Source of the DNA: Thermodesulfobacteriota bacterium
Lineage (GTDB): Bacteria; Desulfobacterota; QYQD01
Assembly: GCA_040754095.1 (NCBI GenBank)
Contig: JBFMFO010000004.1
Span: 3,475 to 67,474 of the forward strand
Length of the DNA stretch: 64,000 nt
Direction of reading: 5' to 3'
Shown: piece after piece, positions 13,069 through 51,836 of the stretch
Layout of the letters: every line of letters starts with the position of its first letter
How positions within the stretch are numbered: the stretch's first letter is position 1
Notes under the pieces: generated by a model
Seen by the model: the letters and a program-made list of their open reading frames with translations, nothing else
Databases searched by the model: none
Told to the model about the DNA's origin: nothing
Translations under genes and position numbers: made by a program

Positions 13069-13108
13069 GTGTCCTTAGAGCGAGAAAAAACGACCATGGA
13101 GGAATAGC

Positions 13109-14377
13109 ATGACATCTGGAACAGGTCCTGTAAGCGGAACCATACTAGTCGTTGGTGGGGGGATTAGCGGATTGACGGCTGCCCTGGAGGCGGCAGAGGT
13201 GGGATATGATGTTATATTGGTGGAGAAAAATCCATACCTTGGCGGCCGGGTAGCTCAGCTAAATAAGTATTTTCCAAAGCTATGTCCTCCAACATGTGGC
13301 TTGGAGATTAACTTCAAAAGAATAAAAACCAACCCCCATATCAAGTTTTATACTCTGGCCGAGGTGGATAAGGTTTCCGGGAGTCCCGGCAACTACGATG
13401 TGTCTGTGAAAATAACCCCTCGATACGTAAATGAGAACTGTGTGGCCTGTAACGCCTGCGCTGAGGTGTGCCCGGTTACACGCGAAAATGACTTTAACTT
13501 TGGTATGAATACCAGTAAGGCGGCATATAAGCCGCATGACATGGCTTTTCCGATGCAATATGTTATTGACGGAAAGGTATGCCAGAAGGCAAGTTGCGCC
13601 AGATGCGTTGAGGTTTGTAAATACGATGCCATCGATCTGAAGATGGAGCCGAAGACCCTGGATCTGAAGGTAGGCAGCATAGTCTGGGCTACGGGTTGGA
13701 AGCCCTATGATGCTACTAAAATGGATAACCTCGGATTTGGAAAACATAAAAATGTCATTACCAATATGATGATGGAGAGATTAGCCGCGCCTAATGGACC
13801 GACTGCGGGTAAGATTTTACGGCCTTCCGATGGGAAGGAGATACAAAAGATCGCTTTTGTCCAGTGTGCCGGCTCCAGAGATGAAAACCATCTGCCATAT
13901 TGTTCATATATTTGCTGTTTGGCCTCATTGAAACAGGCAACTTATGTGGCTGAACAGTATCCGAAGGCGAAGATCTCTATATACTATATCGATATTCGAA
14001 CCCCCGGCCGATATGAGAATTTCTATCGTAAAGTCGCTGCCAATCCCAATATCTCGTTAATTAAAGGTAAGGTGGCGCAAATCGAGGAAGATCCCGCCAC
14101 AAAGGATGTGACGGTGGTTGCTGAGAATACGGCAACCGGAGCAAAAGTCCATGAAAGGGTGGATATGGCTGTCCTGGCCACGGGGATGCAGCCCGCCATG
14201 GCAGGGACGAATATCTCTCTTAACGTTCCATTGAACGAGAGCAGCTTTGTTCTGGCCGATCCACAGAGGGGAATTTCTGCCTGTGGTTGTGCCAAGGAAC
14301 CCCTGGATGTTGTTTCCTGCGCTGAGACTGCTACCGGAGCAGCGATGAAGGCTATTCAAACTTTGGTGAGGAGGTAG
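13109..14377 (+). CDS. qmoA: QmoA (HdrA-like flavoprotein)
   Basis: 422 aa: ILVVGGGISGLTAALEAAEVGYDVILVEKNPYLGGR plus ferredoxin-type Cys clusters. Confidence 0.85.
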   Translation: MTSGTGPVSGTILVVGGGISGLTAALEAAEVGYDVILVEKNPYLGGRVAQLNKYFPKLCPPTCGLEINFKRIKTNPHIKFYTLAEVDKVSGSPGNYDVSVKITPRYVNENCVACNACAEVCPVTRENDFNFGMNTSKAAYKPHDMAFPMQYVIDGKVCQKASCARCVEVCKYDAIDLKMEPKTLDLKVGSIVWATGWKPYDATKMDNLGFGKHKNVITNMMMERLAAPNGPTAGKILRPSDGKEIQKIAFVQCAGSRDENHLPYCSYICCLASLKQATYVAEQYPKAKISIYYIDIRTPGRYENFYRKVAANPNISLIKGKVAQIEEDPATKDVTVVAENTATGAKVHERVDMAVLATGMQPAMAGTNISLNVPLNESSFVLADPQRGISACGCAKEPLDVVSCAETATGAAMKAIQTLVRR

Positions 14378-14381
14378 GTAG

Positions 14382-16685
14382 ATGGAAAAGAAATACGGAG
14401 TATACATCTGTACCGGCTGTGATATCGGTAAATCACTTGATATAGAAAAGCTGTCCGCGGTAGCTGCCAGTTCCAAGGTTCCACTCTGTAAAAACCATCC
14501 TTTTCTGTGCAGTTCGGCCGGTGTTGACCTGATAAAACAGGATATCGCAGGGGAGGGGGTCAATACCGTGATTATCGCTGCCTGTTCGCCAAGGGTCATG
14601 TATGACGTTTTTGACTTCGGCCCTGTACTGGTGGAGAGGGTAAATCTGCGGGAAGGCGTGGTCTGGAGCCATGAGGCAAGAAAAGCCGGAGGCGAAGGAG
14701 AAGAGGCGGTTATTGATCCGGAGTTTCAGATGCTGGCCGAGGATTACCTGCGTATGGGGATTGTAAAGACCCAAAAAGGTGAGCTTCCTGAGCCTTATAA
14801 ACCGGAAGAGGAGATTAATAAGAAAATCCTGGTTATTGGCGGCGGTGTGACGGGTATGAGTGCGGCACTTGATGCGGCCAGCGTCGGCTATGAGGTCACT
14901 CTCGTGGAAAAAGAGAAGGAACTGGGCGGGTTTGCGGCCAGGCTCTATAAACAAGCGGCCAAGACCTACCCATATACTGATATAGAGACACCGGATATTA
15001 AGTCCAAGATCAGCGCGGTTAAAAGCCATGCGAAGATCGATGTCCGTACAGAGACGGAGGTAGCCCGTATAGCCGGTGCGCCGGGGCTATACCATGTCTC
15101 GTTTAAGCCGGCAGGGACTGAGACTGAGTGGGATGTGCCGCCTAAGGCAGCCGCTCCGGCAACTGAGGAAGCCAAACCGGCCGAGGGCGGAGAAGCCGCT
15201 GAGGTGGCGGCTGGCCGGGCATACAAGGATATCCTGCTTCAGGACGAGAATGCAGAACACTACGGCGCGGTAATATTGGCCACCGGATGGAGGCCTTACG
15301 ATGCCAATAAACTGGATGCCCTGGGCTTTGGCAAGTATCCGAATGTGATTACCAACGTGATGATGGAGGATATGGCGGCGAAAGGCTCCCTGGTCCGGCC
15401 CTCGGATGGAAAGCCGGCAAAGAGTGTGGCCTTTATTCAGTGCGCCGGCCAGCGGGATGAGAAACATCTTCCGTACTGTTCCGCGACATGCTGTATCACC
15501 TCCCTCAAGCAGGCTAAATATGTGCGGGAACAGGGTGAAGACGCCAAGGCGTTTATTTTCTACAAGGATATGCGGACCCCGGGCCAGTATGAGAATTTCT
15601 ATAAGAGCATGCAGCAGGATCCGGGGGTTTTCCTGACCAAGGGGGATGTGGTATCCATTACCGAGGATGCCAGGAAAGGATTAACCGTAGAGGTTGATAA
15701 TACCCTTATTGGAGAAAAAATTGAGGTGAACGTGGACATGGTGGTCTTGGCCACCGGCATGGTCCCCACGACCCAGGATGAGGCCATTATTAATCTGGCC
15801 TACCGCCAAGGTCCCGGCTTGATAGACCTGGAGTTATTTAATGGCTTTGCGGATTCCAACTTTATCTGTTTTCCTTACGAGACCAGGCGAACCGGTGTCT
15901 ATGCGGCGGGCACGGTCCGGCAGCCGATGACCATACCTATGTGTGAAGACGATGCGGCCGGCGCGGCCCTTAAGGCTATTCAGTGTATAGAATCGGCCTA
16001 TAGGGGCGTGTCGGTTCATCCGCGTTCCGGGGATATGAGCTATCCGGAATTCTTCTTTGCCAGATGCACACAGTGTAAAAGGTGCACCGAAGAATGTCCG
16101 TTTGGGGCATTGGATGACGATGAGAGAGGAACGCCCAAGCCCAATCCCACGCGGTGCCGGCGCTGCGGTACCTGTATGGGGGCCTGCCCGGAGAGAATTA
16201 TCGGATTCAAAAATTATAACATTGACATGATCGGCTCCATGGTGAAGTCCTTTGAAGTGCCGGAAGACGAAGGTATATACAGGGTTGTCGCCTTTGTCTG
16301 CGAGAATGATGCCTATCCGGCTATGGACATGGCGGCTATGAAGGGGCTTAAGTTACCGGCGGGTATAAGGGTTATCCCGGTGCGTTGCCTGGGCTCGATG
16401 AATATGGTCTGGATTAAAGATGCCATGTCCAGAGGCATCGATGGCGTTATCCTTTTGGGTTGCAAGTATGGCGATGATTATCAATGCCACTTTGCCAAGG
16501 GCAGTGAACTGGCCAACAGGCGTATGGATAACGTGGGCGAGACATTAAAATCTCTGGCCCTTGAATCAGAACGTGTTAAACTGGTACAGGTGGCCATTGA
16601 CGAATATGATAAGATACCACAGATTTTCAATGAATTTATGGAGCAGATGGAGGCCATGGGCCCCAGCCCCATGAAAGGCTTTTAG
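14382..16685 (+). CDS. qmoB: QmoB (HdrA-like with MvhD-like C-terminus)
   Basis: 767 aa with a second FAD site (ILVIGGGVTGMSAALDAASVGYEVTLVEKEKELGG), CxxCxxCxxxCP clusters and a C-terminal MvhD-like domain. Contains an A/E/P-rich low-complexity insert. Confidence 0.85.
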   Translation: MEKKYGVYICTGCDIGKSLDIEKLSAVAASSKVPLCKNHPFLCSSAGVDLIKQDIAGEGVNTVIIAACSPRVMYDVFDFGPVLVERVNLREGVVWSHEARKAGGEGEEAVIDPEFQMLAEDYLRMGIVKTQKGELPEPYKPEEEINKKILVIGGGVTGMSAALDAASVGYEVTLVEKEKELGGFAARLYKQAAKTYPYTDIETPDIKSKISAVKSHAKIDVRTETEVARIAGAPGLYHVSFKPAGTETEWDVPPKAAAPATEEAKPAEGGEAAEVAAGRAYKDILLQDENAEHYGAVILATGWRPYDANKLDALGFGKYPNVITNVMMEDMAAKGSLVRPSDGKPAKSVAFIQCAGQRDEKHLPYCSATCCITSLKQAKYVREQGEDAKAFIFYKDMRTPGQYENFYKSMQQDPGVFLTKGDVVSITEDARKGLTVEVDNTLIGEKIEVNVDMVVLATGMVPTTQDEAIINLAYRQGPGLIDLELFNGFADSNFICFPYETRRTGVYAAGTVRQPMTIPMCEDDAAGAALKAIQCIESAYRGVSVHPRSGDMSYPEFFFARCTQCKRCTEECPFGALDDDERGTPKPNPTRCRRCGTCMGACPERIIGFKNYNIDMIGSMVKSFEVPEDEGIYRVVAFVCENDAYPAMDMAAMKGLKLPAGIRVIPVRCLGSMNMVWIKDAMSRGIDGVILLGCKYGDDYQCHFAKGSELANRRMDNVGETLKSLALESERVKLVQVAIDEYDKIPQIFNEFMEQMEAMGPSPMKGF

Positions 16686-16697
16686 GAGGTATGTGAA

Positions 16698-17816
16698 ATG
16701 GCAGGTTATTCAGTTGATCCCGATGTTAAGTTTGTTAAGGAGATTCAGAAATTAGGCGGAGAGTCTCTGAAGAAGTGCTTCCAGTGCGCGACATGCTCGG
16801 TCATTTGTCCCCTGTCTTCAGACCAAAAGCCTTTCCCGCGAAAAGAGATGATCTGGGCGCAGTGGGGGTTGAAGGACAAGCTGGTCAAAAATGGCGACAT
16901 TTGGGCATGCCACCAGTGCGGTGATTGTTCGACTTATTGCCCGCGCGGGGCTAGGCCGGGCGATGTCATAGCGGCGGCGCGCGCTTACGCTATCAGGGAA
17001 TACGCCTTCCCAAGATTCATGGGCAACCTGGTCGGCGAGGGTAAGTATCTGCCGGTGATTATGGCTATCCCCCTGGTGATAATCCTGCTGGTGCTTGCCG
17101 CCCTTGGGAATTTAAAGATCCCGGAGGGCGAGATTGTTTATTCGAAGTTTTTGCCGATCAAGTTTGTGGATTCCATATTTTTGCCCTTTGCCGGTCTGGC
17201 TATAATTTCCCTGGGTCTGGGGTTAAGGAACTTTTGGAATGACATGAGTCCCAGCCGTTACAGGCATCTGGTCGGGCGAAACTTTTTAAAGTCATTGGTG
17301 GAGACCATTGCCGAGGTGCTGGGGCACGTGCGTTTTAGAAAGTGCGGGACAAACGTGGGGCGCTTTACCGCCCATCTGGCCGTGTTTTACGGGTTTGTCG
17401 GTCTCTTTACAACTACTAATATCGTGGTGTTTTACGAATATATCCTCCATCGGGAGACACCCCTGCCGTTATATGATCCGGCCAAGATCATCGGGAATAT
17501 CAGCGCGATTATTCTCTTTATCGGTATTTCCCTGGTTATAAGGAACAGGCTGGCGAACCCGGATCAAAGCAGTTCTTATTTTGACTGGGCGCTTATCCTC
17601 ATGATATTAGGCGTAACGGTATCCGGGATACTTACGGAACTTTTACGGCTGGCGGATATTGCCACCCTCGCCTATCCGATGTACGTTCTTCACCTGATGT
17701 TTGTCTTCTATATCATAGGATACTTACCCTATTCCAAGCTGGCGCATATGGTGTACCGTACGGTAGCCTTGGCTTACAAAAGACATATAGAGACAAAGTC
17801 GGAGCGTGTCAGGTAA
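16698..17816 (+). CDS. qmoC: QmoC (HdrC/HdrE-like membrane subunit)
   Basis: 372 aa: CFQCATCSVICP and CHQCGDCSTYCP motifs followed by transmembrane helices. Confidence 0.8.
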   Translation: MAGYSVDPDVKFVKEIQKLGGESLKKCFQCATCSVICPLSSDQKPFPRKEMIWAQWGLKDKLVKNGDIWACHQCGDCSTYCPRGARPGDVIAAARAYAIREYAFPRFMGNLVGEGKYLPVIMAIPLVIILLVLAALGNLKIPEGEIVYSKFLPIKFVDSIFLPFAGLAIISLGLGLRNFWNDMSPSRYRHLVGRNFLKSLVETIAEVLGHVRFRKCGTNVGRFTAHLAVFYGFVGLFTTTNIVVFYEYILHRETPLPLYDPAKIIGNISAIILFIGISLVIRNRLANPDQSSSYFDWALILMILGVTVSGILTELLRLADIATLAYPMYVLHLMFVFYIIGYLPYSKLAHMVYRTVALAYKRHIETKSERVR

Positions 17817-36395: not shown

Positions 36396-38099
36396 TTGTA
36401 CAAAAAGCAGGTTTTAAGCAAGGAACTTCTCGCCGCCGAAAAGGGAGTAATCAGGAAGAAATGGCACGGTAAATTACCCGTAGCCCTCATTTATCCCAAC
36501 CATTACCATGTGGGCATGTCCAGCCTGGGCTATCAGGTCGTTTATGCCCTTTTTAATCGGAATCCGTGCGTGGTCTGTGAACGCATCTTCCTGCCGGAGG
36601 AGGGCGAATCTCCTTTTTCCATAGAGTCCCACCGGCCCCTGACCGATTTTAAGGTCCTGGCATTTTCCATCTCTTTTGAGAACGATTATCTGAATGTCCT
36701 GAAGATCCTCCAGGCCTCAGGCATCCCCATACGGACAGAAGATCGCAGCGATAAACATCCTCTGGTCATGGCCGGGGGGGTAGCAACCTTCCTCAATCCG
36801 GAGCCATTGGCCGGATATATAGACTGCTTTTTACTGGGCGAGGGGGAAGAAACCATTCCGCCTTTTCTCGATCTGTTGATAGAAAAGCAGTTTTTCGGAC
36901 AGGATCGCCGGAAGGCGCTCCGGGAACTGGCCTCCCGCCTTGACGGCCTCTATGTCCCGCAATTCTATCAGCCGGGCTACGATAAAAAGGGACGGTTAAA
37001 ATCCTTTGAGCCGGTTGAAGGGTTGCCGCAGAGCGTAAAAAGAATGAGCGTGCCTATAGTAAGGGCCGCCGAGAGACACACTATTGTCCTTACCCCCAAC
37101 ACCGAATTTGGAGACAAATTTCTTATTGAGATAGGGAGCGGATGTTCGCGAGGATGTCGTTTCTGTGCGGCGGGTTTTATCTATCGTCCGCCCCGGCCCT
37201 GGCCGGAAGAAGTCATAAATAGGGTAATTGCCGGGGCCGGGGATATTGATAAGGTGGGTCTGGTAGGGGTAGAGATTGCCGATGCCGAGGCCATAGAGCG
37301 TATCTGCAAGCATCTCATCGCACACGGTAAGGAGGTTTCGTTTTCGTCCCTGCGGGCGGACTGCCTGACCCCGGAACTCCTGGCCGCCCTGAAAACCGCC
37401 GGGTTAAAGACGGTCACCATAGCTCCAGACGCCGGATCGGAGCGCCTGCGGCGGGTAATTAATAAGGGACTGGATGAAAAAACCATAGTGGAGGCAACCG
37501 AGAGATTGGCTCAGTGGGATATCCTGAATCTCAAGCTCTATTTTATGATCGGCCTGCCTACGGAAGAAAGAGAAGATGTAGAGGCCATTGTCCACCTGAC
37601 CAAAAAGATAAAACATCATATCCTTAAAATATGCCGGGATAAAAGGCGCATGGGTACCATAACGCTCAGTGTTAACTGCTTCGTGCCCAAACCCTGGACG
37701 CCTTTCCAGTGGGTGGCCATGGATGAGTTGGAGTCGCTGCAGGACAAGATAAAGATTATCAGTCACGGCCTGCGCCACGAGGGAAACGTCCGAACCACGT
37801 TCGATGTGCCCAAGTGGGCTTACGTGCAGGCCCTCCTGGCCCGAGGAGATCGCCGGATCGGGTCTTTCCTGGAGGCGGCGTTAAAGACAGGTAGCTGGAA
37901 GAAGGCTTATAAAGAAGTGGACTTAAATCCTGATTTCTTTGTCTCCCGCGAGCGGGATCGGGATGAACTTTTCCCCTGGGATTTTATCGGCCATGGCATA
38001 AATAAAGACTACCTGTGGGAAGAATACCAGAAGGCCCTGAAGGCCGAAAAGACCATCCCCTGCCAGGTGGGAATATGCAAGCGGTGCGGGGTGTGCTGA
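36396..38099 (+). CDS. B12-binding-domain radical SAM protein
   Basis: 567 aa: CSRGCRFCAAGF CxxxCxxC radical-SAM motif preceded by a B12-binding-like N-domain. TTG start with a GGAG RBS; C-terminus ...CQVGICKRCGVC. Confidence 0.8.
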   Translation: MYKKQVLSKELLAAEKGVIRKKWHGKLPVALIYPNHYHVGMSSLGYQVVYALFNRNPCVVCERIFLPEEGESPFSIESHRPLTDFKVLAFSISFENDYLNVLKILQASGIPIRTEDRSDKHPLVMAGGVATFLNPEPLAGYIDCFLLGEGEETIPPFLDLLIEKQFFGQDRRKALRELASRLDGLYVPQFYQPGYDKKGRLKSFEPVEGLPQSVKRMSVPIVRAAERHTIVLTPNTEFGDKFLIEIGSGCSRGCRFCAAGFIYRPPRPWPEEVINRVIAGAGDIDKVGLVGVEIADAEAIERICKHLIAHGKEVSFSSLRADCLTPELLAALKTAGLKTVTIAPDAGSERLRRVINKGLDEKTIVEATERLAQWDILNLKLYFMIGLPTEEREDVEAIVHLTKKIKHHILKICRDKRRMGTITLSVNCFVPKPWTPFQWVAMDELESLQDKIKIISHGLRHEGNVRTTFDVPKWAYVQALLARGDRRIGSFLEAALKTGSWKKAYKEVDLNPDFFVSRERDRDELFPWDFIGHGINKDYLWEEYQKALKAEKTIPCQVGICKRCGVC

Positions 38100-38139
38100 T
38101 ACATAAAATGGCAAAGCGCATTAACCGTGAGGTTAAGAC
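38010..38139 (+). repeat. R1: native 3' end of the radical SAM gene plus ~40 bp downstream (reference copy of a triplicated ~130-bp direct repeat)
   Basis: CTACCTGTGGGAAGAATACCAGAAGGCCCT...GGCAAAGCGCATTAACCGTGAGGTTAAGAC. Degenerate copies lie at 39029-39156 and 40298-40425. Confidence 0.8.
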
Positions 38140-38790: not shown

Positions 38791-38945
38791 TAACTCCGAT
38801 TTATATGCCCCGTGCGGGAGCACGGGGAACCATATGCTGGGGGTCGAGGGGGGCGCTAAGCATCCCCTTGTCAAGGGCGGGGTTAATGCCCCGCCCGCGA
38901 AGACGAGTTGAGCGAGCGCATTGTGCGAGCTCGACGAGTTTACTT
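38791..38945. repeat. Q1: 155-bp structured repeat, identical to 42468-42622
   Basis: Contains hairpins CCCCGTGCGGGAGCACGGGG and GGGCGGGGTTAATGCCCCGCCC. Letter-for-letter identical to the second copy. Confidence 0.8.
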
Positions 38946-39028: not shown

Positions 39029-39156
39029 ACCTGTGGGAAGGATACCAGAAGGCCCTCAAGGCCGAAAAGACATCCCCTGCCAGGTAGGGAAGTGCAAGCG
39101 GTACGGGGTATGCTGATACACAAAATGGCAAAGCGCATTAACCGTGAGGTTAAGAC
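39029..39156 (+). repeat. R2: degenerate copy of the radical SAM 3' end (~88% identical, 1-nt deletion)
   Basis: ACCTGTGGGAAGGATACCAGAAGGCCCTCAAGGCCGAAAAGACATCCCCTGCCAGG...GCGCATTAACCGTGAGGTTAAGAC. Confidence 0.75.
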
Positions 39157-40297: not shown

Positions 40298-40425
40298 CCT
40301 GTGGGAAGAATACCAGAAGGCCCTCAAGGCCGAAAAAACCATTCCCTGCCAGGCAGGAAAGTGTAGGCGGTGTGGGGCCTGCTAATACGCAAAACGGCAA
40401 AGCGCATTAACCGTGAGGTTAAGAC
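40298..40425 (+). repeat. R3: degenerate copy of the radical SAM 3' end
   Basis: CCTGTGGGAAGAATACCAGAAGGCCCTCAAGGCCGAAAAAACCATTCCCTGCCAGG...GGCAAAGCGCATTAACCGTGAGGTTAAGAC. Confidence 0.75.
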
Positions 40426-40611: not shown

Positions 40612-41688
40612 ATGGTAACCAAGCTGAATATTAGTGGATTTAAGGGGTTTGAAAAGCTCGAATTGCCCCGATTGTCCAGGTTTACACTTCTGGGTGGACG
40701 AAATAACGTTGGAAAGACCTCTGTCCTCGAAGCTGTGTTTATGTTCTTCGACAGGCTTAACCCTCAAATGATTCTCCGCCAGTTTGATTGGCGCGGCGTG
40801 AACGCTGTATCACTAGAGCCTGACACTCTGTGGGCGCCGGTGTTTTTCAATTATGACCTCGGGAAGCCAATGGCTATTTGTGCAGTTATTGATGGTAGCG
40901 AAGAAAAAATGACCGTGAAATTCAATCCAAACTACGTTGAACCTGGGATACAGGCGAAGGCATCCGATTCGGGAATGAAACCTCTTCACGTGCGAACAGA
41001 CCAGAAGCCCATCCCTTCCTACGCTCTGGACATTGAATATAGAAGAAAACAAGAAAGGGTACAGGTATCGCACATGTTGATAGGACCGAGCGGAATCGGC
41101 TTACGAATCGACCATGCAAAGGTAAAACAGCGGGCTGCGGTTTTCCTTGTATCCAGAATGCATGTCAACCCATCGGAAGACGCCGAGCGGTTTGGCCAGC
41201 TTGACATTGTGGGACAACAGGACAGAATCCTTGAGTTTCTGCGACTGGTGGAACCCAAGCTGAAGAGCCTATCATCCATTGCTATGGGTGATACTTCGCT
41301 GATCCATGGGGATATTGGTCTATCAAGAAAAATCCCCGTATCCTACATGGGGGAAGGTGTCTCTCGGCTGCTTTCGATTATTCTGGCCATAGCCACCTCA
41401 AAAAATGGCGTCGTACTTATCGATGAGTGCGAGAATGGCATCCATTATTCGATTATGTCCAAAGTTTGGGAAGCCATAGGGAAAGCGGCCCGGGAATTCG
41501 ATTGTCAGGTAATTGGAACAACACACAGTTACGAATGTCTTAGATCCGCCTACGAAGGGTTTGGCGGAGAGTTGAAACAGGATTTCAGCTACGTGCGTCT
41601 TGACAGAATAGACGATAACGTGGTGGCCAAAACGTTTGAGTATGAGCTGCTAAAAACTGCAATTGAGTCCGGGATGGAGGTACGCTGA
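40612..41688 (+). CDS. ABC-type (SMC/RecF/OLD-like, AAA_21/AAA_15-type) ATPase, candidate defence ATPase
   Basis: 358 aa: ISGFKGFEKLELP...LLGGRNNVGKTSVLEA (Walker A), VVLIDECENGIHYSIM (Walker B/D-loop), IGTTHS (H-loop). GGAGG RBS; 1-nt gap to the next gene. Confidence 0.7.
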   Translation: MVTKLNISGFKGFEKLELPRLSRFTLLGGRNNVGKTSVLEAVFMFFDRLNPQMILRQFDWRGVNAVSLEPDTLWAPVFFNYDLGKPMAICAVIDGSEEKMTVKFNPNYVEPGIQAKASDSGMKPLHVRTDQKPIPSYALDIEYRRKQERVQVSHMLIGPSGIGLRIDHAKVKQRAAVFLVSRMHVNPSEDAERFGQLDIVGQQDRILEFLRLVEPKLKSLSSIAMGDTSLIHGDIGLSRKIPVSYMGEGVSRLLSIILAIATSKNGVVLIDECENGIHYSIMSKVWEAIGKAAREFDCQVIGTTHSYECLRSAYEGFGGELKQDFSYVRLDRIDDNVVAKTFEYELLKTAIESGMEVR

Positions 41689-42467: not shown

Positions 42468-42622
42468 TAACTCCGATTTATATGCCCCGTGCGGGAGCAC
42501 GGGGAACCATATGCTGGGGGTCGAGGGGGGCGCTAAGCATCCCCTTGTCAAGGGCGGGGTTAATGCCCCGCCCGCGAAGACGAGTTGAGCGAGCGCATTG
42601 TGCGAGCTCGACGAGTTTACTT
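42468..42622. repeat. Q2: 155-bp structured repeat identical to Q1, nested between 17-bp perfect inverted repeats (42405-42421 and 42679-42695)
   Basis: Flanking IR ACGGGCTGTTGCCCAAA / TTTGGGCAACAGCCCGT seen directly in the sequence. Confidence 0.8.
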
Positions 42623-42927: not shown

Positions 42928-43752
42928 ATGCCCACGAAACACAAGCGATTTAAACTCATTCTGGAGTACGATGGCGGCCGTTACAGTGGCTGGCAGAAGC
43001 AGAAGGATACAAAAACCATCCAAGGGAGTCTCTTGCGGTGCGCAGGCGAACTTTTCGGGGAGCAGGTGGATATTCAGGGCAACGGGCGCACCGATGCCGG
43101 CGTCCATGCCTTGGAGTACGTTGCCCACCTGGAGGCAGCGACCGATCTCGGCCCGCAGGAGATCGTCCGGCGGCTCAATGACATTCTACCCCAGGATATA
43201 AATGTCCTGAAAGTGGAAAGGGCGGGATCCCAGTTCCATGCCCGTCATGATTGCGTGGGACGCAGTTACCTGTATCAGATTGCCAAGCGTAAAACCGTCT
43301 TCCGCAGGCATTACGCCTGGTGGGTGAAAGACCCCCTCAAGGTGCCGGTCATGCGGGAGGCGTCAGCCTTACTGACCGGGATGAATGACTTTTCCTCCTT
43401 TACAGACCGCCAGGCCATCAAGAAAAAATCTCCTTTGGTTATGGTCAACAATACGTTGCTGCACGAAACTGACGACATCATCCTTTTCCGTATTGTCGGC
43501 TCCCATTTCCTCTGGAAGATGATCCGCCGGATCGTCGGCGTGCTGGTTGCCGTGGGGAATGGCAGCCTCAGTGTTGATGAGGTACGGCGTTTTCTTGTGG
43601 AGCCGGTGAACTTGAACCGTTTTACTGCCCCAGCCCACGGCCTCTTCTTTGAACGTGCCTTTTACAACGATGAAGAGCTAAAAGGATTTATCAGTTCGGA
43701 AGAAATCCCGCCCGCTCCTACGCACCAGGTGCAGGCCCAACCCCTGACGTAG
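42928..43752 (+). CDS. truA: tRNA pseudouridine(38-40) synthase TruA
   Basis: 274 aa: LILEYDGGRYSGWQKQ and GRTDAGVHA catalytic Asp motif. Confidence 0.9.
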   Translation: MPTKHKRFKLILEYDGGRYSGWQKQKDTKTIQGSLLRCAGELFGEQVDIQGNGRTDAGVHALEYVAHLEAATDLGPQEIVRRLNDILPQDINVLKVERAGSQFHARHDCVGRSYLYQIAKRKTVFRRHYAWWVKDPLKVPVMREASALLTGMNDFSSFTDRQAIKKKSPLVMVNNTLLHETDDIILFRIVGSHFLWKMIRRIVGVLVAVGNGSLSVDEVRRFLVEPVNLNRFTAPAHGLFFERAFYNDEELKGFISSEEIPPAPTHQVQAQPLT

Positions 43753-44045
43753 GCGGTGTGATAATGGCAGTTAAGACAAGACCCTGTGCCGCCATAATGG
43801 GAATTGTGGTTATGGCAGGCGGGGCAAAGGTCTCTGGAATGTGGGGCGCTCCAACTCGCTACAGTGATCCCGTTGACTGATTTTCGGAGAAGATAAGGTC
43901 TGGGCGACCCATGCGGTTCATGACAGTCGGTACAACAGAGGATGAAATTAATGTAATTGGCCGCATGGTAAGGGTCTTTCAGGCTGCCCCAGTTGGAACA
44001 GTTTGGCTCTGCACATCCGCATCCCTGGCCGGTGTTTCCGTCCAC
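43662..44045 (-). pseudogene. truncated multiheme cytochrome c fragment, paralog of the C-terminus of 49346-50599
   Basis: GSLKDPYHAANYINFILCCTDCHEPHG...CPACHNHNSHYGGTGSCLNCHYH versus GSIKDPYHAANYINFILSCTDCHEPHG...CKSCHVHIGHCGGPGSCLTCHFHN. No signal peptide or N-terminal hemes; overlaps the truA 3' end by 90 nt. Confidence 0.5.
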
Positions 44046-44184
44046 ACCAAAACAGCGGGTGATGGAGCCGTGATAATACTTGTGATCAGATGGGAAATAA
44101 TCGCGCCGGGGTCAAGTTCTTGTGGGCTTGCGCCGTAAAGTATAGGTGAATATACATCCTTAGTTGAAAGGAGTGTCGGGCACT

Positions 44185-45123
44185 ATGGGAAGTTTTATGA
44201 GGTATGGCATTTTATCTTTCTTTTTTCTTTTGGTTCTATGTTGTTACAGCGCCCCGTGTCTCGCTTTTGATCAAAATGCAGGTGGTAAAGAGTGCCACCT
44301 GACCATACTGTACTCGGGCAATACATGGGGGCATGTAAAGCCCTGTCCGGGTTGAGGCGACAGGATGCTGGGCGGTCTGGCCCGGCGGTCAGGGGCTATA
44401 GGGCAGATAAGGGGGCGCAGCAATTGTGTCTTATTGCTCGATGCCGGCGACAGCCTCTTTGGAAGGTGTAAGTATTCCCCATGTGAGTTGCCGTTGGCCC
44501 GGGAAAGGGCGGAGTTCATCTTAAAAAGCTACCTGGACATGGGTTATCATGCGATAAATATTGGTCTTGAAGACTGGGAGGATGGCGATTTTCTCATGAC
44601 CAGAATAAAGGGGGAAAAGTACCCTTTTGTAGCCGCAAATTTAAAAGGCGCTGATCCGGCTCTAACTTTGCCTCCATCCTTCGCTGTCATAGATGTTTGT
44701 GGGTGTAAGGTAGGTATCCTTGGCCTTATGAACGATCGAAGAGGACACGTTGAGGGACATCCGGATATTATAGTAAGTGATGCCAAGATCGTGATTAGGG
44801 ACATTGTTCCCGGGTTGAAAAAGGAGTGTTCCCTTGTGGTGATGCTGTCTAATCTGGGGACCAGGACAGATACGAAGCTTGCTGAAGAGGTTGACGGCCT
44901 GGACATCATCATTGAAAGCGGAAGCGGCGCTTTATGCAAGCCCTGGAAGATAAACAATACCTACATATGTTCTCCTAAGCCGGAAGGCCACTGGCTGGGC
45001 CGCCTTGACGTAATCGTGACCCCGGGCGGTGAGATCAAACAGATCAGCCATCAAATATTGATACTCGATGAGAGCATTCCGGAAGATGAAAGGATGCGCA
45101 AAGAAATAGAAAATAGGTTTTAG
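44185..45123 (+). CDS. secreted 5'-nucleotidase/metallophosphoesterase-like protein with in-frame TGA (44353-44355); either a selenoprotein (CPG-U) or a pseudogene
   Basis: Signal peptide MGSFMRYGILSFFFLLVLCCYSAPCLA. HLTILYSGNTWGHVKPCPG-TGA-GDRMLGGLARRSG...LLLDAGDSLFG aligns to the 5'-NT N-domain. Both track ORFs (44164-44355 and 44365-45123) are in the same frame. Confidence 0.5.
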
Positions 45124-45217: not shown

Positions 45218-48200
45218 CTAGAGTCCATAAAGAGTCCTCTGATGTAAAGAAGTCTTGATGGAGCTCCCGCCGTATTTTCTTATTGTATCCATCAGTCGGA
45301 GTAAGGTATTCCTGGCGGACCCCAGATGCGGATCTATCTCTAGCGCCGTTTTATAAGAGTCCAAAGCCTTAGCCAATTGTCCCGTGGCTTCGTAACACAT
45401 GCCCAGATTAAGATGGATGACTGCTGCATTCGGATCAAGAGCCAGAATCTTCAGCAGGGCCTCTTCGGCCTCTTCGAAATCTCCGCCCTGCCAGTATAGA
45501 TTTGCCAATACACTCAGGATCTGACAGTATTTCTGGTTCGCGTCCGGGCCTTTCTGAATTTTTTTTAGCTCTTTCAGAAGATTAAGTTCCATTAGCTCTC
45601 TTTTTAATGCGCGGTCTTCGGGATTGCTTTTGGCCATGGTCTGAAGTCCCTCTATAGCATGATCATACATCCCTTGAATCTTATACAAACTGACCAAGTC
45701 CGGGAGATGGTCTTCACAGTATCCCACTGCCTTCTCAAGTTCCCGCGTGGCTTCTATAAACCGCCTTTGCTTCCAAAAATCCAGAGCGCTGCTATAATTA
45801 TGGATGCTCCGGTAGGGCGGAGGCCTCAGATTCCTTGGCTCCCTCAACCGGGCGGTAGCATAGGCTATGATGTCTTCAGCACTCGTACGCCCGCTTAACC
45901 GGTCCAGACATTTTGGGGCTACTCGGTTTGCCCGGTCTAATTCCAACACTTTTAGAAAGCCCTTTTTTGCCCTAGCGAATTGTAAGGCATTTTCATAACA
46001 GGTAGCCATGTTGAGATGATTCATTATGGAATTGGGCTGAAGCCTTACCGCTCCTTCCAATTCGGCCAGGGCTGAATCAAAGCTTCCCCTTTCCAAGTAG
46101 GCGAGCCCCAGCCTTTGTCTGGCTTCCGGACTATTGGGCAGATAGTTTACCATCCTTTTGGCATAGATCAGGTTGAGCCCCTTTCTAATCTTTTCAGAAA
46201 GCCAGGGTACAGGTCCAAGTTTGGTTGCAATATCCAACTGCTCTACCGCTTCGTCAAACTTATTCAAACCGAAATAGGCCTTTGCCAGTCCGAAATGGGC
46301 ATCAATGGATTTGGGTTCTGTTTCGAGGACCTTCTTAAACCAGCCTGTTGCTGCGGAAAAATCTTCAGCGTTCAAGCTGGAGAAGCCCAGATTCTGGCAG
46401 ATGGTATAGTCTTTGGGATTTTCCGTTAAGGCCCTGAGCAGGATGGCCTTTGAATTATGCGAACAGCCGAGCATATCACGGGCTACTTCAGACACCGGAT
46501 TCAGTTCCAGCGCTCGCCGATACATCATATTTGCCAGGTGAAACTGACTGTCGAGTTCGAGGAGTCGTCCAGCCAGTATATAATCCCTCTCCATAATATA
46601 GCGTTTCAAGGCGAGATCACCGGGACCGGTCTTTAGATATCGAACTATATCGCTCCGCCTGACCAGAAGCTCTTGCAAGATTCTTTTCACTCCCCGATGT
46701 CGTTCCACAGGGCCAAAGTATCTCTTGGCTGCTGCGTATTCCAGATAGGAATTATCATCCGTGTTGCATAGTCCCTTCTGCCCGATGAGCTGCAAGATAC
46801 CTTCATTGTCTAACAAAAAGAAACTTAGCAACTGCCGACAATCGAGGACTGAGATGGCAGCCAGGTCCTCCCGAATCGCTTTCCGGTTGAAATGCTGTTC
46901 CAGTTTGCGCAAGTCTATGGAGAGAGGCTGAATCATTCCCATAAGGATGCACCATTCGTTGCGGCCAGCCGGTGTATGCCAGAGATACACGTGGGGGAAA
47001 ACCGTTTTCATAGATCGGAGAATCACCTTGAAATCCTCCGGAGTAAGCTCGTAGAGAGGTGCCCAGGTAGAAAATATTCCCCCGGTTCTGAGTTTATCTT
47101 TGCAAAGGCGAAAGTATTCTACGGTATAAAGCGACCCGTTGCCGGCGATAGTTGGATGAATGGAATCAGAGAGTATAACATCATATCTTCGGGTTCCTCT
47201 CACCAAAAAACTTCGCACATCATCTATGGCCAAGTTCAGTTTGGACTTATCGAGGACCTTCTGATTCACATCCGCAAAAAAACCAACGGTGTCTATCACT
47301 TCCGGGGAAATTTCCACACTATCTACGTGGTCTATATTGTGCCGGGTTACGGAAGAGGCTGTCTCACCGCTTCCAAACCCGATTTGCAGGATTTCCCGGG
47401 CCTGGCTATGTATCAGGAGCGGAATATGAGCCTGCAGCTTTTGAGATGTCCTGAACTTGAAGTCCGTACCAGAGACATTTACTCCATTTATGGCCAGTTG
47501 CAGAGAGTAGTCAGGCAACCGGTGCACGGTAACGGTTCCGCCGACCCCCTCCCTTGCGAAGACAGTCCTGATTTCTTCATTCCCTTTAGAAAATATAGAG
47601 ATAAAAGCGTCTTGATCCATCCAGAAGTAGCCGCCCAGAAACAAGAAGGCTGCGGTGACTTGTGCAAAAATTACCCTTACTCTGCGATCCAGGCACCGCA
47701 TTAGAATCAAAGCCGCTACGATGATGTTGAGCAAAGCTATGAAAATCAGACTCCGCCTTGTACCTAGAACAGGCAAGAAAATCAGACCGGCCATGATGGC
47801 ACCAAGGATGGCCCCGATCGTATTTGCCGAGTAAATTGTCCCGATTTTGTGCCCTATTTCCTTTAGATTGTCGGTATAGATACGGCTTGCCATGGGGAAG
47901 GTGGCACCGAGAAAAACGGAGGGTACGAAAACCAATGCCAGACAGGCGAGGGCAAAATAGGTCATACTGCGCCAGTATGGATCAGGAATAAGTTCAACAT
48001 AATCTCTGGCGAATTCCTGGAGAGAATTCAATCTCACGACTAAAGGAATCGAAAGGACAGAGATGAAGGCGAGCGTAATTTGCAGTCCGGCGAGAGTTTG
48101 CCTGAGGGGTCTGATTTTGTCGGCCAGGAAACTCCCGATATAACTCCCCACGGCAAACCCCAGCAAAAAAAGCGTGAGCATGGTTGAAAAGGTATATACC

Positions 48201-49024
48201 AGTACCCCTGGCGAGAAAAAGACCAGTACCCTTGTCCAGACTATTTCGTAAGCCAGGCCGGTAAAACCCGAAAGCCCTATAGCCCAGACTATCATGTTGT
48301 CCGGTCCGAATTTGCTTTTCTGGTTACCATAGTTCGTGCGCCCTGTTCTATTTAAAGAAGCGGTCGCCGGCGGAATTTCTGCGTTATTGTATCTATGCAG
48401 ACCAAACGAGAGTAGCCCGGCTATTGCGGCTACTCCAAAATTCATGCCGACTGTGAGATGCGTCGTGCCTTGGATACCAAAGACCTCTATGAGAAAGAAA
48501 CCACCTATGAAGCAACCAACAACTGCGCCCAGGGTATTTGCCGCATAGAGTTCACCCGTGATTCGGCCAATCTTATCATTACTGGTTGCAGCGAACCGGC
48601 ACAGGATGGGAAGTGTCCCTCCCATTAAAGTAGTAGGAGCAAGGATCAAAATGAAACAGAAAACAATTTGAGCCAGCCGGAACGAAAAGGGAGTGTTTCC
48701 CATGAAGCGGCAGATCCATATATAGAGTGGGGTAAGGGCTGAGAAGAGAAAAGGCAGGCTAAGGGCCAGGAAGGCGATAGCTGCTTCGATAATGGCATAG
48801 GTCAGAAGCGGTCTGTTTTTCCGGTCGATAAGCTTGCCAAATTTATAGCTGCCTATAGCCAGCCCTGCCATGAATGCGGCCAGGATAATACTGGCGGCAA
48901 AAGTAGTATTTCCCAGGATCCGCGCCAGTATCTTCACCCACAATACTTCATAGATGAGGGCGCAGGTCCCGGAAAGAAAAAACAATACGTATACCGCCCG
49001 TCTAATCCATTCTCTGCCGGACAT
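45218..49024 (-). CDS. fused MFS-type membrane domain / spermidine-synthase-like domain / TPR-repeat protein
   Basis: 1268 aa: ~14 TM helices in two MFS-like halves, then VLQIGFGSGETAS...DVILSDSIHP (aminopropyltransferase/class I MTase fold), then a ~600-aa TPR array. Confidence 0.75.
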   Translation of the reverse strand: MSGREWIRRAVYVLFFLSGTCALIYEVLWVKILARILGNTTFAASIILAAFMAGLAIGSYKFGKLIDRKNRPLLTYAIIEAAIAFLALSLPFLFSALTPLYIWICRFMGNTPFSFRLAQIVFCFILILAPTTLMGGTLPILCRFAATSNDKIGRITGELYAANTLGAVVGCFIGGFFLIEVFGIQGTTHLTVGMNFGVAAIAGLLSFGLHRYNNAEIPPATASLNRTGRTNYGNQKSKFGPDNMIVWAIGLSGFTGLAYEIVWTRVLVFFSPGVLVYTFSTMLTLFLLGFAVGSYIGSFLADKIRPLRQTLAGLQITLAFISVLSIPLVVRLNSLQEFARDYVELIPDPYWRSMTYFALACLALVFVPSVFLGATFPMASRIYTDNLKEIGHKIGTIYSANTIGAILGAIMAGLIFLPVLGTRRSLIFIALLNIIVAALILMRCLDRRVRVIFAQVTAAFLFLGGYFWMDQDAFISIFSKGNEEIRTVFAREGVGGTVTVHRLPDYSLQLAINGVNVSGTDFKFRTSQKLQAHIPLLIHSQAREILQIGFGSGETASSVTRHNIDHVDSVEISPEVIDTVGFFADVNQKVLDKSKLNLAIDDVRSFLVRGTRRYDVILSDSIHPTIAGNGSLYTVEYFRLCKDKLRTGGIFSTWAPLYELTPEDFKVILRSMKTVFPHVYLWHTPAGRNEWCILMGMIQPLSIDLRKLEQHFNRKAIREDLAAISVLDCRQLLSFFLLDNEGILQLIGQKGLCNTDDNSYLEYAAAKRYFGPVERHRGVKRILQELLVRRSDIVRYLKTGPGDLALKRYIMERDYILAGRLLELDSQFHLANMMYRRALELNPVSEVARDMLGCSHNSKAILLRALTENPKDYTICQNLGFSSLNAEDFSAATGWFKKVLETEPKSIDAHFGLAKAYFGLNKFDEAVEQLDIATKLGPVPWLSEKIRKGLNLIYAKRMVNYLPNSPEARQRLGLAYLERGSFDSALAELEGAVRLQPNSIMNHLNMATCYENALQFARAKKGFLKVLELDRANRVAPKCLDRLSGRTSAEDIIAYATARLREPRNLRPPPYRSIHNYSSALDFWKQRRFIEATRELEKAVGYCEDHLPDLVSLYKIQGMYDHAIEGLQTMAKSNPEDRALKRELMELNLLKELKKIQKGPDANQKYCQILSVLANLYWQGGDFEEAEEALLKILALDPNAAVIHLNLGMCYEATGQLAKALDSYKTALEIDPHLGSARNTLLRLMDTIRKYGGSSIKTSLHQRTLYGL

Positions 49025-49345: not shown

Positions 49346-50599
49346 TCAGAAAGAATTGCCGGCTGCGCCGAAGGGGCCTCCGCATTGCCAACTGCCCCAG
49401 CATTTGGAAGCGGCGTTGTGGAAGTGACAGGTCAGGCAACTGCCAGGCCCCCCACAATGTCCGATATGTACGTGGCAAGACTTGCAGAATTCGGCCTCCC
49501 AGGTCCAGGGACCCGGCCCGGGCGGATACCGGTTATAATGGCCGTTTACTGTTTTGCGCAGGAGATAAGGAGTTGTTGTATTATGGCCGTGAACCGCCCC
49601 GTGAGGTTCATGGCAGTCCGTGCAGGAAAGGATGAAATTGATATAATTGGCCGCGTGATAAGGGTCTTTTATGGACCCCCACGCCATTCCGTCCACGGTA
49701 TTGCAGCGGGTTACGCTGCCGTGATAGTCGCCGGGGAAGGTCCGTTTATTGGGCTGCGCCCAGTCGATTTTTTTCAGATTTCTGCCGAGGGTTGTGCTGT
49801 AAATATCGTTTGTGGCATTGTGACAGTCTGAACAGAAGGTAACGTAATCGGGTAGATTCGAGCCGTCAGTGATCCCGGACCCGTCCGGTTCGTAAGTAGT
49901 AGTTGAGCTATATTGATAAGGGGCCTGATATTGACCTCCATGGGCAACCGCGTAGTCACTCATCTTTTCCCCGGCCCCATCACCCCAGATATTATTGCGA
50001 TCTGTTGGTCTTACGATCGGATAGCTGCGCTGAGAGATATGCGGGTTATGACAGGCGTTACAAGGGTTTGATTCATTGCCAAATGTTTCCGGCCACTTTG
50101 TTTTCACAAAATCGAGTATGTCTTGAAGGTTGTGGGCAGAGCCGGAGACAGGGTTAAAGGTATCATAAATATTATTGGGTGTGGTGTGATTGACAATATC
50201 CCCACCAAACCAGTAACTATAGTTATAATTTGTCCGGTCGAAGGATATCTGTAGCGAACCCGCTCCTTCATGGCAATAGTAGCAAAAGCCCTCTGTCTGA
50301 CTGGTAAAGTTATCTGCAAAGATGGCGTACCTGGAAGCGTTTCCACCTGCCGGTGCGGCCTCCTGGCCATCAATACGGGCATGCTGCTCATGGCAGTGGC
50401 CACAGTGGCCTTTGGTATAACCAATGGTAGCGGTAGCGCTCCGGTTAACCCCATAACTCGTATTTCCATGGGCCGAGTTAAAGTAGGTACCGGCAAAAAG
50501 TGGAAGAGACTTGCACAGGAATATACTGAGACAAAGAGAAAGGGCACAGACCGGGAGGCCCAACCATAGTTTCTTACGACGCGGCACTATAACCCTCAC
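49346..50599 (-). CDS. multiheme cytochrome c (7 CxxCH), secreted
   Basis: 417 aa with signal peptide. CGHCH, CYYCH, CNACH, CSDCH, CTDCH, CKSCH, CLTCH. Confidence 0.8.
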   Translation of the reverse strand: MRVIVPRRKKLWLGLPVCALSLCLSIFLCKSLPLFAGTYFNSAHGNTSYGVNRSATATIGYTKGHCGHCHEQHARIDGQEAAPAGGNASRYAIFADNFTSQTEGFCYYCHEGAGSLQISFDRTNYNYSYWFGGDIVNHTTPNNIYDTFNPVSGSAHNLQDILDFVKTKWPETFGNESNPCNACHNPHISQRSYPIVRPTDRNNIWGDGAGEKMSDYAVAHGGQYQAPYQYSSTTTYEPDGSGITDGSNLPDYVTFCSDCHNATNDIYSTTLGRNLKKIDWAQPNKRTFPGDYHGSVTRCNTVDGMAWGSIKDPYHAANYINFILSCTDCHEPHGAVHGHNTTTPYLLRKTVNGHYNRYPPGPGPWTWEAEFCKSCHVHIGHCGGPGSCLTCHFHNAASKCWGSWQCGGPFGAAGNSF

Positions 50600-50675
50600 T
50601 GAACACAGGAACTTATGGGGGAAGCTCTAACTACTTATCGGCAATCTTGCAGGCAAAGATTAAACCTTGCCCGTG

Positions 50676-51836
50676 CTAGAGATGATCGTCCTTTGAGGTA
50701 TGACAGACGTAGCACCCGGTTTCCTTCGCCATATTTTCGTAATTCCACCTTAGCATGTCAGGATAAGGGCTGCCATGGACCCGGTGACAGGAGAGGCACA
50801 TGACCCGGTCCACTCCCGGGGTTACGGTACTGGAAACGATACTTACAACAGGACGCGAGACGGGCGCCTGGGGATTATAGGCGGTGTAAGCGGCATATTC
50901 GCCCCCGCTGGGTATCTCGGTATCTCCGGCCGGATGTCTCAGCCAGCTTCCGGTTGCATCCCGGTTGCGATTCTGCAGGTCCCAACTGTGATAGTCCCGG
51001 TGACACCCAGCGCAGAAGTCGCTGATACCCATAGGATTTGCAGAGCCCGGAGAGTATGGAGCAGCGGGTTTATCAGCGTCCCGGTACTCATTGTGATCTG
51101 CCTGGCCCACCGTCAGTTCCCAGTCGGGGTCTTCAATCCCCTCCACTCCCGGCCGGCTGGAATGCGGCGGAATATCCCATACCCAGGCCGGCCTGCCCAG
51201 GAAACGATAACACCCGTTTTCTTCTTTTACCACGCCGCCTGGAGCCGGGTCCGGGGCGTGGTGTCTGGGGACATGGCAACCTATGCACCCATTGCCCTTG
51301 ATAGGATAATGGAACCAGTCGTATCCGGGGCCAAGCCGGATGCTGGCGAGCGATGCGTGGCATCCGCCGAATCCGCAGCCGACGCCTGTTTCCGAGGAAC
51401 CCGGCGCCGAAGATAGGGTTTGATCCACGCTTATCACATTGTGCCCGTAATTATCCCCGTTATGTTGAACGTAGTAGAAGTTTCCCCCAGCCGTCATCTG
51501 TGCGGGTTCAACCGTATTGTAAACAATAGGGATCGTGCTCTCCCCAAGCGGCTTTGTCGGGGAGCCGTCGGTTGAGGAGTGGCAGCCAATGCACGTTGTG
51601 TTCAGCAAGTTGTAGCCCGGCCCCCCCCGCTTTGCGCTTTCCGTGTATATTTCCACACCATTTTGCGAGTTGTGCATGGTATGGCAATTCACACAGGCGC
51701 CTTTTACAGACGCCCAACTTGCTGCAGGAATGAACAGCAAAAGGGCCGACAAGAGAAGCAGGATCATACAAACATGGTTTCTTGAGGGGGTCAGACGCAT
51801 GCCGAAAGCTTTACGCAATATATATGCCAAATGCAT
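50676..51836 (-). CDS. multiheme cytochrome c (6 CxxCH plus one CX4CH), secreted
   Basis: 386 aa with signal peptide. CVNCH, CIGCH, CGFGGCH, CIGCH, CAGCH, CLSCH, CYVCH. Confidence 0.8.
   Translation of the reverse strand: MHLAYILRKAFGMRLTPSRNHVCMILLLLSALLLFIPAASWASVKGACVNCHTMHNSQNGVEIYTESAKRGGPGYNLLNTTCIGCHSSTDGSPTKPLGESTIPIVYNTVEPAQMTAGGNFYYVQHNGDNYGHNVISVDQTLSSAPGSSETGVGCGFGGCHASLASIRLGPGYDWFHYPIKGNGCIGCHVPRHHAPDPAPGGVVKEENGCYRFLGRPAWVWDIPPHSSRPGVEGIEDPDWELTVGQADHNEYRDADKPAAPYSPGSANPMGISDFCAGCHRDYHSWDLQNRNRDATGSWLRHPAGDTEIPSGGEYAAYTAYNPQAPVSRPVVSIVSSTVTPGVDRVMCLSCHRVHGSPYPDMLRWNYENMAKETGCYVCHTSKDDHL

Follow-up and report, generated by a model that had tools for sequence, protein, structure and literature searches.

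A TGA-interrupted gene that very probably encodes a secreted selenoprotein

The window analysed here is a 64-kilobase (kb) stretch of DNA (64,000 nucleotides (nt) in full) from a Thermodesulfobacteriota bacterium, and it carries at 44185-45123 a gene for a 5'-nucleotidase-like protein that is interrupted by one in-frame TGA codon. Comparison with related sequences indicates that this TGA is very probably a genuine selenocysteine (Sec) codon in a secreted protein, and not the lesion of a pseudogene. An earlier note on this DNA had proposed a selenoprotein in place of a pseudogene, and that proposal is supported by the conservation of the UGA column and of both its flanks over more than 120 genomes, and by Sec/Cys pairs.

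Read directly from the window sequence, the TGA lies at 44353-44355, in frame within a 312-codon open reading frame (ORF) at 44185-45123. The ORF listing and translation place the ORF 44164/44185..44355 and the ORF ending at 45123 in one frame, and all coordinates that the earlier note had given for a single TGA splitting a one-frame ORF hold. The codons at 44341-44355, CCC TGT CCG GGT TGA, give P53-C54-P55-G56 and the TGA, which is followed on its 3' side by GGC GAC AGG ATG CTG GGC GGT CTG GCC CGG CGG. The read-through product, MGSFMRYGIL...WGHVKPCPG-U-GDRMLGGLARRSG..., comprises 312 codons including U57, and the C-x-x-U motif noticed earlier is present in it as C54-P-G-U57. The features of the gene are as follows.

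44185..45123, + strand: complete coding sequence (CDS) of the putative selenoprotein (ORFs, protein search, orthologue alignment)
44167..44173, + strand: Shine-Dalgarno-like AAAGGAG, 11 nt before ATG 44185 (read from the sequence)
44185..44265, + strand: predicted Sec-type signal peptide (MGSFMRYGILSFFFLLVLCCYSAPCLA / FDQ) (sequence inference)
44344..44355, + strand: C54-P55-G56-U57 motif, TGT CCG GGT TGA (sequence, orthologue alignment)
44353..44355, + strand: UGA, very probably read as selenocysteine (U57) (conserved column, Sec/Cys pairs, standard code)

The ATG at 44197 offers another start, and of the ATGs it alone is conserved in the orthologue L001; a hydrophobic N-terminus is found in all aligned orthologues. 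Once the signal peptide is cleaved, the mature product of this one gene is predicted to be a secreted selenoprotein of ~285 residues. The GenBank CDS at this place covers only 44365-45123, a 252-residue product named hypothetical protein AB1711_02885 [Thermodesulfobacteriota bacterium] (P0001).

Conservation of the UGA codon

The read-through product was searched against 5.8 billion proteins, and the contigs of its relatives were then translated upstream in frame. The search recovered the product's own downstream part (P0001) and relatives from 88% down to 49% identity, and the entries P0001-P0007 and P0015 are all annotated as starting just past the TGA column. A TGA stands at one and the same column in L001, L003/L004, L005/L006, L007, L008 and L009 (48-89% identity), and also in L010 (28% identity). 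The flanking sequence reads PCPG-U-GDRMLGGLARR in the window, L001 and L003, PCTD-U-DGKTLGGLARR in L005, PCPT-U-GGKMLGGLARR in L007, L008 and L009, and PCPT-U-GDRMLGGLARR in L010, giving the consensus PC[PT][GDT]-U-[GD][DG][RK].LGGLARR among orthologues. Upstream of the UGA, every orthologue has a signal-peptide-like N-terminus and the conserved strand LTILYSGNTWGH; the upstream flank L-T-I-L-Y-S-G-N-T-x-G-H-x-x-P-C and the downstream flank GG-L-A-R-R are both kept, and G49, H50, P53, C54, U57 and G63-R68 are invariant in the clade alignment.

A wider scan used the DNA pattern P-C-x-x-TGA-[GD][DG]-x-x-x-G-G-x-x-R-R on species-representative genomes. This TGA-requiring pattern matched at least 119 of them, and among the matches listed all 119 are family members with coding conservation on both sides of the TGA. 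Among these matches the carriers are mainly Desulfovibrionaceae, together with Syntrophales, Desulfohalobiaceae and other Thermodesulfobacteriota; isolates with the TGA include Pseudodesulfovibrio karagichevae, P. pelocollis, Desulfovibrio caledoniensis and Solidesulfovibrio magneticus. Reassignment of TGA in this organism was ruled out: TGA closes 12 of the 29 long ORFs of the window, and the code is thus standard.

The window comes from a metagenome-assembled genome (MAG), and single-base errors occur in such assemblies, which would leave room for a sequencing or assembly error, or for a strain-specific mutation of a Cys (TGT/TGC) or Trp (TGG) codon. However, the same TGA is present in L045, a second MAG of the window's species (98.5% nt identity), which excludes an assembly error. 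Near-identical independent assemblies carry it in two cases (the window and L045; L001/L002), orthologues show it in NCBI, JGI, ENA and Logan assemblies, and it also occurs in isolates such as P. karagichevae. An erroneous or strain-specific TGA is thereby effectively refuted, and we give it a negligible probability.

A true stop would leave either a pseudogene or two genes, one for a 56-residue secreted peptide and one for the 252-residue protein from ATG 44365. Gene callers in all sources chose this solution, with P0001-P0007 and P0015 beginning after the TGA, and an ATG does lie 9 nt past it. The window itself also gives grounds against a selenoprotein: selA, selB, selD and tRNA-Sec were not found within the 64 kb, nor was a second selenoprotein candidate or any other credible split ORF. 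No tRNA of any kind was found within the window, whose large ORFs encode MoeA, AprA, QmoABC, a radical SAM protein and pyruvate kinase. Against the true stop, a nonsense mutation would not be expected to persist at a single column across more than 120 species while the sequence on either side stays under purifying selection. Translation from ATG 44365 alone would give a protein devoid of the signal peptide, of the first beta-strand and of the one cluster of invariant Cys and His. Nothing resembling a Shine-Dalgarno motif is seen before ATG 44365, and Cys replaces the codon in paralogues and homologues. We therefore consider a true stop very improbable, and a selenocysteine codon remains by far the preferred reading of the UGA.

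Cysteine at the selenocysteine column

The occurrence of Cys at the Sec column is a classical signature of selenoprotein families, and the earlier note had suggested aligning homologues for Cys or Sec at this position. In that comparison, Sec (TGA) occupies the column in orthologues, and Cys does so in rare homologues and in tandem paralogues, which constitutes the signature. A second DNA pattern, with TGY in place of TGA, was scanned over a metagenome collection and gave only five real genes there (L130-L133 and L135, all CxxC), with the sequences PCPV-C-GGRIIGGLSRR, PCQV-C-GG.. and PCQS-C-GE.. among them. The more distant homologues P0008 and P0010 have C-G-C at the motif. In two Solidesulfovibrio genomes, a tandem Cys paralogue (DPCPTCGPQKLGGLARR) lies directly upstream of the Sec gene.

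L061 3835-4702 and L119 1421-2288, same strand as the Sec gene: Cys paralogue DPCPTCGP[QE]KLGGLARR, 288 residues, 50-54% identical

A SECIS-like hairpin directly after the UGA

Downstream of the UGA, within the codons for M-L-G-G-L-A-R-R, the transcript can form a hairpin resembling a bacterial selenocysteine insertion sequence (SECIS).

44366..44387, + strand: SECIS-like hairpin (folding, comparative pairing, RNAalifold, synonymous constraint)

Its 5' arm occupies 44366-44373 (UGCUGGGC), its apical loop 44374-44379 (GGUCUG) and its 3' arm 44380-44387 (GCCCGGCG). The 7-base-pair (bp) stem that the earlier note had described, GCUGGGC (44367-44373) with GCCCGGC (44380-44386) under the loop GGUCUG, is present and extends to 8 bp by one more U-G pair. 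The loop starts 18 nt past the UGA. Folding of the 30-nt minimal hairpin gives -16.7 kcal/mol, as compared with -10.85+/-2.37 kcal/mol in shuffled sequences (z=-2.47; 4 of 200 shuffles). Hairpin thermodynamics by themselves are only suggestive, and the case for the hairpin rests on sequence comparison.

Proteins of the family were clustered without reference to RNA, and the comparison set comprises the 23 sequences of clusters 22 and 23 (Syntrophales type) and cluster 24 (the window clade), all three of which carry the window-type hairpin; in the window clade, the same hairpin follows the UGA in every member. Over the 23 sequences, 97.3% of hairpin cells are paired; sliding the 3' arm by 1-3 nt lowers this share to 28-49%. 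RNAalifold independently yields exactly the 8 stem pairs. At pair 18-31, G-C is replaced by U-A in 3 sequences through a Leu change from CUG to CUU and an Arg change from CGG to AGG, both of them synonymous. Column shuffles reached the observed covariation score in 5 of 500 cases, a count that is not a probability. A conserved lower SECIS stem beside the UGA was hinted at by single minimum-free-energy folds and was not supported by RNAalifold.

Synonymous codon choice points in the same direction. Where the amino acid is invariant in the window clade, hairpin codons have a pairwise identity of 0.76 as compared with 0.48 at 70 other such columns (Mann-Whitney p=0.0008), and in the 23-sequence set it is 0.73 as compared with 0.48 at other columns (p=0.015). 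The Gly codon of the loop is GGU in 20 of 23 sequences, although GGU, at 13%, is used less in these genes than any other Gly codon, and Arg codon 10 is CGG in 7/7 members of the window clade, with CGG making up 15% of Arg codons. In Cys forms that encode LGG[LV]xRR, only 3-4 of the 8 pairs are left, and the loop position has GGC, GGG or GGA, not GGU. These sequences are related, and the comparison argues with moderate strength that the hairpin is under selection as RNA.

The geometry was compared with that of established elements. The apical loop of a bacterial SECIS (bSECIS) lies 16-37 nt from the UGA (PMC10778597). At 18 nt, and with G in the loop, the window hairpin fits this published range, and like the E. 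coli fdhF SECIS and the bSECIS consensus it stands inside the coding region right after the UGA. This placement, along with the RNA-level constraint on the hairpin codons, supports the bacterial SECIS arrangement that had been suggested before. The apical loop of fdhF contains GGUC, whose G and U contact SelB, and the GGU preference in the loop would fit those contacts by analogy. The window hairpin differs from the fdhF SECIS: a hexaloop caps its 8-bp stem, two pairs of which are U-G, and a bulged U is not evident.

Several observations speak against a SECIS at this place. The 66-nt context is no more stable when folded than shuffled sequence is (z=-0.83). Covariation is thin, since a single pair has double changes and these may stem from one inherited event, and the need to encode the conserved peptide LGGLARR partly determines most of the stem pairs. 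The Desulfovibrionaceae clusters have a different hairpin, UGGCCC-GGC-GGGCCA, and do not keep the window register; the nearest outgroup, cluster 26, is without the window-type hairpin. Rfam, at gathering and at permissive thresholds, gave no SECIS-type match, only a noise miRNA hit.

From such observations one could argue that the UGA does encode Sec, yet that the hairpin at 44366-44387 is a mere by-product of the peptide M-L-G-G-L-A-R-R in moderately GC-rich DNA, the SelB element lying elsewhere or being differently shaped. Five of the 8 pairs involve first or second codon positions fixed by Gly, Ala, Arg or Leu, relatives with the same peptide (Desulfovibrionaceae, cluster 26) drop the register and seem to use another hairpin, and neither a conserved lower stem nor an unusually stable 66-nt context is seen. 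However, the synonymous sites in these codons are extra conserved, with the rare GGU and CGG favoured, one compensatory change is doubly synonymous, Cys forms with the same peptide lose the pairing, and the geometry fits the bacterial SECIS rule. On balance we think a by-product improbable and favour the hairpin as the SECIS-like element of this gene.

A single SECIS shape for the whole CxxU superfamily was considered and rejected. Over 122 distinct sequences, pairs 15-34, 16-33 and 18-31 are only 33-55% paired, and the Desulfovibrionaceae have their other hairpin. The hairpin type thus differs by cluster, which makes the SECIS shape clade-specific.

A branch of UshA-like selenoproteins caught by neither curated model

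A Pfam scan of the window protein gave no match, including PF00149 and PF02872. Its best NCBIfam matches are two UshA-like (seleno)protein models, followed by SoxB and 5'-nucleotidases. NF041198 (UshA_like_PCGU) scores 163.3 bits, below its cut-off of 275, and aligns only over profile positions 9-275 of 519; NF049981 (UshA-like (seleno)protein family 2) scores 85.1 bits, below its cut-off of 140, mainly over positions 1-84 of 262, and the window orthologues score 78-117 bits with it. True NF049981 members, at 250-311 bits, are the Desulfovibrionaceae and Desulfohalobiaceae clusters, including Pseudodesulfovibrio, Solidesulfovibrio, Desulfocurvus and Desulfohalobiaceae. P0008 (406 bits) and P0010 (280 bits) qualify as true members of NF041198, and both have a cytochrome c554-like multihaem domain at the C-terminus. 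Neither model's cut-off is reached by clusters 22-26, the window clade among them (150-185 bits and 48-117 bits), and this is how the annotation pipeline missed the Sec codon.

Selenoproteins of this kind have been described before: "COG0737, UshA-like, CxU" appears in the 2008 ocean-metagenome selenoproteome (Zhang & Gladyshev 2008, PMC2398784), and the UshA-like CxxU family (NF049981) is listed as GenBank-annotated (PMC13188914). By its sequence, then, the window gene is of a known kind, a putative UshA-like selenoprotein, in a branch caught by neither curated model. With true NF049981 members it shares P-C-x-x-U-G-G...GG-L-A-R-R with Sec at the equal column, a short secreted form (~290 residues) with one degenerate 5'-nucleotidase N-domain and no cytochrome domain, and occurrence in Desulfobacterota-type sulfate reducers; it differs from them in that its identity to true members is ~25% and in that those use another hairpin after the UGA. 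With NF041198, its best-scoring model, it shares the same degenerate N-domain and Sec/Cys in the equal loop before GGLxRR. The NF041198 motif, however, is P-C-G-U (CxU), and the window's P-C-P-G-U is one residue longer. Whereas the true members P0008 and P0010 carry the multihaem domain (profile ~276-519), the window protein ends at 275 and has no CxxCH; the cytochrome that is fused in true members is encoded by neighbouring genes in the window subclade. The window branch thus appears to combine CxxU as in family 2 with an N-domain closer to NF041198 and no fused cytochrome.

A degenerate phosphoesterase site with a Cys/Sec motif

Profile search identifies most of the protein as a single degenerate domain, whose first strand and motif I, from ~44300, precede the UGA.

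44356..45120, + strand: degenerate metallophosphoesterase (5'-nucleotidase N-terminal) domain, no C-terminal nucleotidase domain (profile search)

A clade profile searched against PDB sequences matches T. thermophilus 2z1a (E=1.3e-26), CD73 (~1e-24), UshA (6e-12) and SoxB (2e-10). The protein shares with UshA, 2Z1A, CD73 and SoxB a homologous N-terminal metallophosphoesterase fold and, by prediction, a location outside the cytoplasm, yet its dimetal ligands are replaced (D to N, H to W, N to L, H to E, H to N, H to G). In the printed profile alignment, motif I HTNDTH has become YSGNTW (NDxH to GNTW, with Asp to Asn and His to Trp), GNHEF has become GLEDW (GNHE to GLED), LSHLG has become LSNLG (LSH to LSN) and GGHSH has become ESGSG. 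Only the Asp of the GD motif is kept among the dimetal ligands in the window, and in some orthologues it is Asn or Glu. The partly degenerate metallophosphatase motifs reported earlier are thereby confirmed, and the loss is wider than first noticed. Canonical homologues have 517-541 residues with PF02872, whereas the window protein has 312 residues without it and instead has the Cys/Sec motif inserted in the strand1-helix1 loop. Because most dimetal ligands and the entire C-terminal substrate-binding domain are lost, the window protein, to judge by its sequence, cannot be a conventional nucleotidase.

The C-x-x-U motif sits in a loop that joins the first strand to the GGxAR helix; in the enzymes, that strand ends in the Asp/His ligands. 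The position of the motif in this strand1-helix1 loop locates it at the old active-site pocket, beside the invariant H50. In the profile alignment, the Sec column also falls on the first Cys of a CD73 loop, ...SSKCVDasRCMGGVARL... (profile positions 50-62; 6xuq/7qgm), which we take to form a structural disulfide in the human enzyme. If that disulfide is right, the strand1-helix1 loop would have independently gained a Cys pair in eukaryotic ecto-5'-nucleotidases.

Genomic neighbourhood

A dissimilatory sulfate-reduction block, aprA-qmoA-qmoB-qmoC, occupies 11061-17816 (11-18 kb) and confirms the sulfate-reducer context assumed before. Multihaem cytochrome genes flank the selenoprotein gene in its closest relatives, L001 and L003. 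The window carries the following counterparts.

43662..44045, - strand: multihaem cytochrome remnant, 127 residues, 3 CxxCH (comparison with L001 and L003)
49346-50599 and 50676-51836, - strand: two multihaem c-type cytochrome genes, 4-6 kb downstream of the selenoprotein gene

An intact counterpart of the remnant is divergent from the selenoprotein gene in L001 (4351-5607) and L003 (4362-5672). At 43662-44083 of the window, ~960 nt of the cytochrome gene are missing as compared with L003, and the C-terminal remnant overlaps the end of truA. The remnant matches the other L001 cytochrome paralogue at its 3' end with 94% identity and the syntenic one with only 69%, which suggests that it arose by recombination between cytochrome paralogues; since the junction is identical in the second MAG L045, the truncated cytochrome is probably real. 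In L003, the second of the two downstream cytochromes lies directly downstream of the selenoprotein gene, and those at 49346-51836 of the window are possible electron partners.

Other clades show other arrangements. In L007 (1351-3633), L009 (107-1885) and the cluster 26 loci L012, L027, L044 and L058, an HD-domain gene (HD_3/YfbR-like), the CxxU selenoprotein gene and a 4Fe-4S/CCG gene (HdrD/GlcF-like) follow one another. This order is kept over two clusters that share only ~32% identity and is lost in the window subclade; the three genes overlap or abut and therefore probably form an operon. In the Syntrophales loci L021, L037, L038, L076, L079, L121 and L125, and also in L013, L088 and L103, a cation-efflux (CDF) gene precedes the selenoprotein gene, and a gene for a VKOR-thioredoxin fusion or a membrane-anchored SurA_N-thioredoxin protein follows it, a context that may point to a thiol-disulfide relay in the periplasm or to a link with metals. 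Neighbours in Desulfovibrionaceae comprise a ParA/MinD-like ATPase and genes resembling dapA or dapF, as judged from N-terminal sequences only. A universal operon partner was rejected, as neighbours vary by clade.

Further features of the window were observed near the gene and elsewhere. In a 1268-residue protein encoded at 45218-49024 (- strand), a multi-span membrane region with weak MFS hits is joined to a spermidine-synthase-like domain and numerous TPR repeats; its gene adjoins the selenoprotein gene in the window and in L001 and is absent in L003. Two adjacent MoeA-type molybdopterin genes lie at 1839-5294, one of them fused to a periplasmic-binding-protein-like domain. A 128-nt segment is present in three copies of 73-88% identity (38012-38139, 39029-39156 and 40298-40425), and a perfect 155-nt direct repeat occurs at 38791-38945 and 42468-42622, 3.7 kb apart. 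The 155-nt copies bracket an ORF for a defence-like AAA ATPase (40612-41688; weak MADS3/PtuA N-terminal hits) and adjoin an RHH/PemK toxin-antitoxin pair. The orthologous loci of L001 and L003 share the repeats and not the inserted block, and the repeat-bracketed block looks like the insertion of a mobile or defence island.

Proposed decoding and function

In the proposed mechanism, the mRNA hairpin at 44366-44387, with its 8 bp and GGUCUG loop, would recruit SelB with Sec-tRNA(Sec), and the UGA at 44353-44355 would then be decoded as selenocysteine U57 in place of a stop. The product, which keeps the N-terminal metallophosphoesterase fold of the UshA/CD73/SoxB type with the dimetal ligands mostly lost, would be exported to the periplasm. 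Its working site would be H50...P53-C54-x-x-U57 in the strand1-helix1 loop at the former catalytic pocket, and a redox-active Cys/Sec (selenenylsulfide) couple may trade electrons with multihaem cytochromes or thiol-disulfide proteins. A periplasmic redox role is our best guess, held with somewhat less than even confidence; it is favoured because cytochromes and thiol-disulfide proteins recur around the gene, a Cys/Sec pair stands at the rebuilt pocket and a signal peptide is present. Two points count against it: the adjacent cytochrome in the window is a truncated remnant, and no gene neighbour is common to the whole family among the loci compared. The redox-partner idea is therefore weakly grounded at the window locus.

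A fuller proposal, which we put forward tentatively and regard as rather doubtful, is that the window protein and its relatives in clusters 22-26 constitute a third, unmodelled UshA-like family, in which the dimetal pocket would have been rebuilt into a His/Cys/Sec site for periplasmic redox chemistry whose substrate would contain sulfur, selenium or a metal(loid), coupled either to multihaem cytochromes or to thiol-disulfide relays of the VKOR/thioredoxin type.

Significance

The present gene leaves the knowledge of Sec decoding unchanged and is not a new kind of system; the result is a useful annotation fix and an enzyme-evolution case of modest interest. The window gene and at least seven orthologues stand in the databases as truncated "hypothetical proteins" with starts just past the UGA, and a model built from clusters 22-26 would correct the annotation in many Thermodesulfobacteriota and Syntrophales genomes and raise their counted selenoproteomes. 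The family is widespread in sulfate reducers (at least 119 species genomes) and clearly illustrates how a hydrolase fold has given up its metal site and acquired a Cys/Sec motif in that pocket; the cytochrome and thiol-disulfide links supply concrete functional hypotheses for it. If the third family with a redox site is real, sulfate reducers and syntrophs would be using an old hydrolase scaffold for a new enzyme chemistry.

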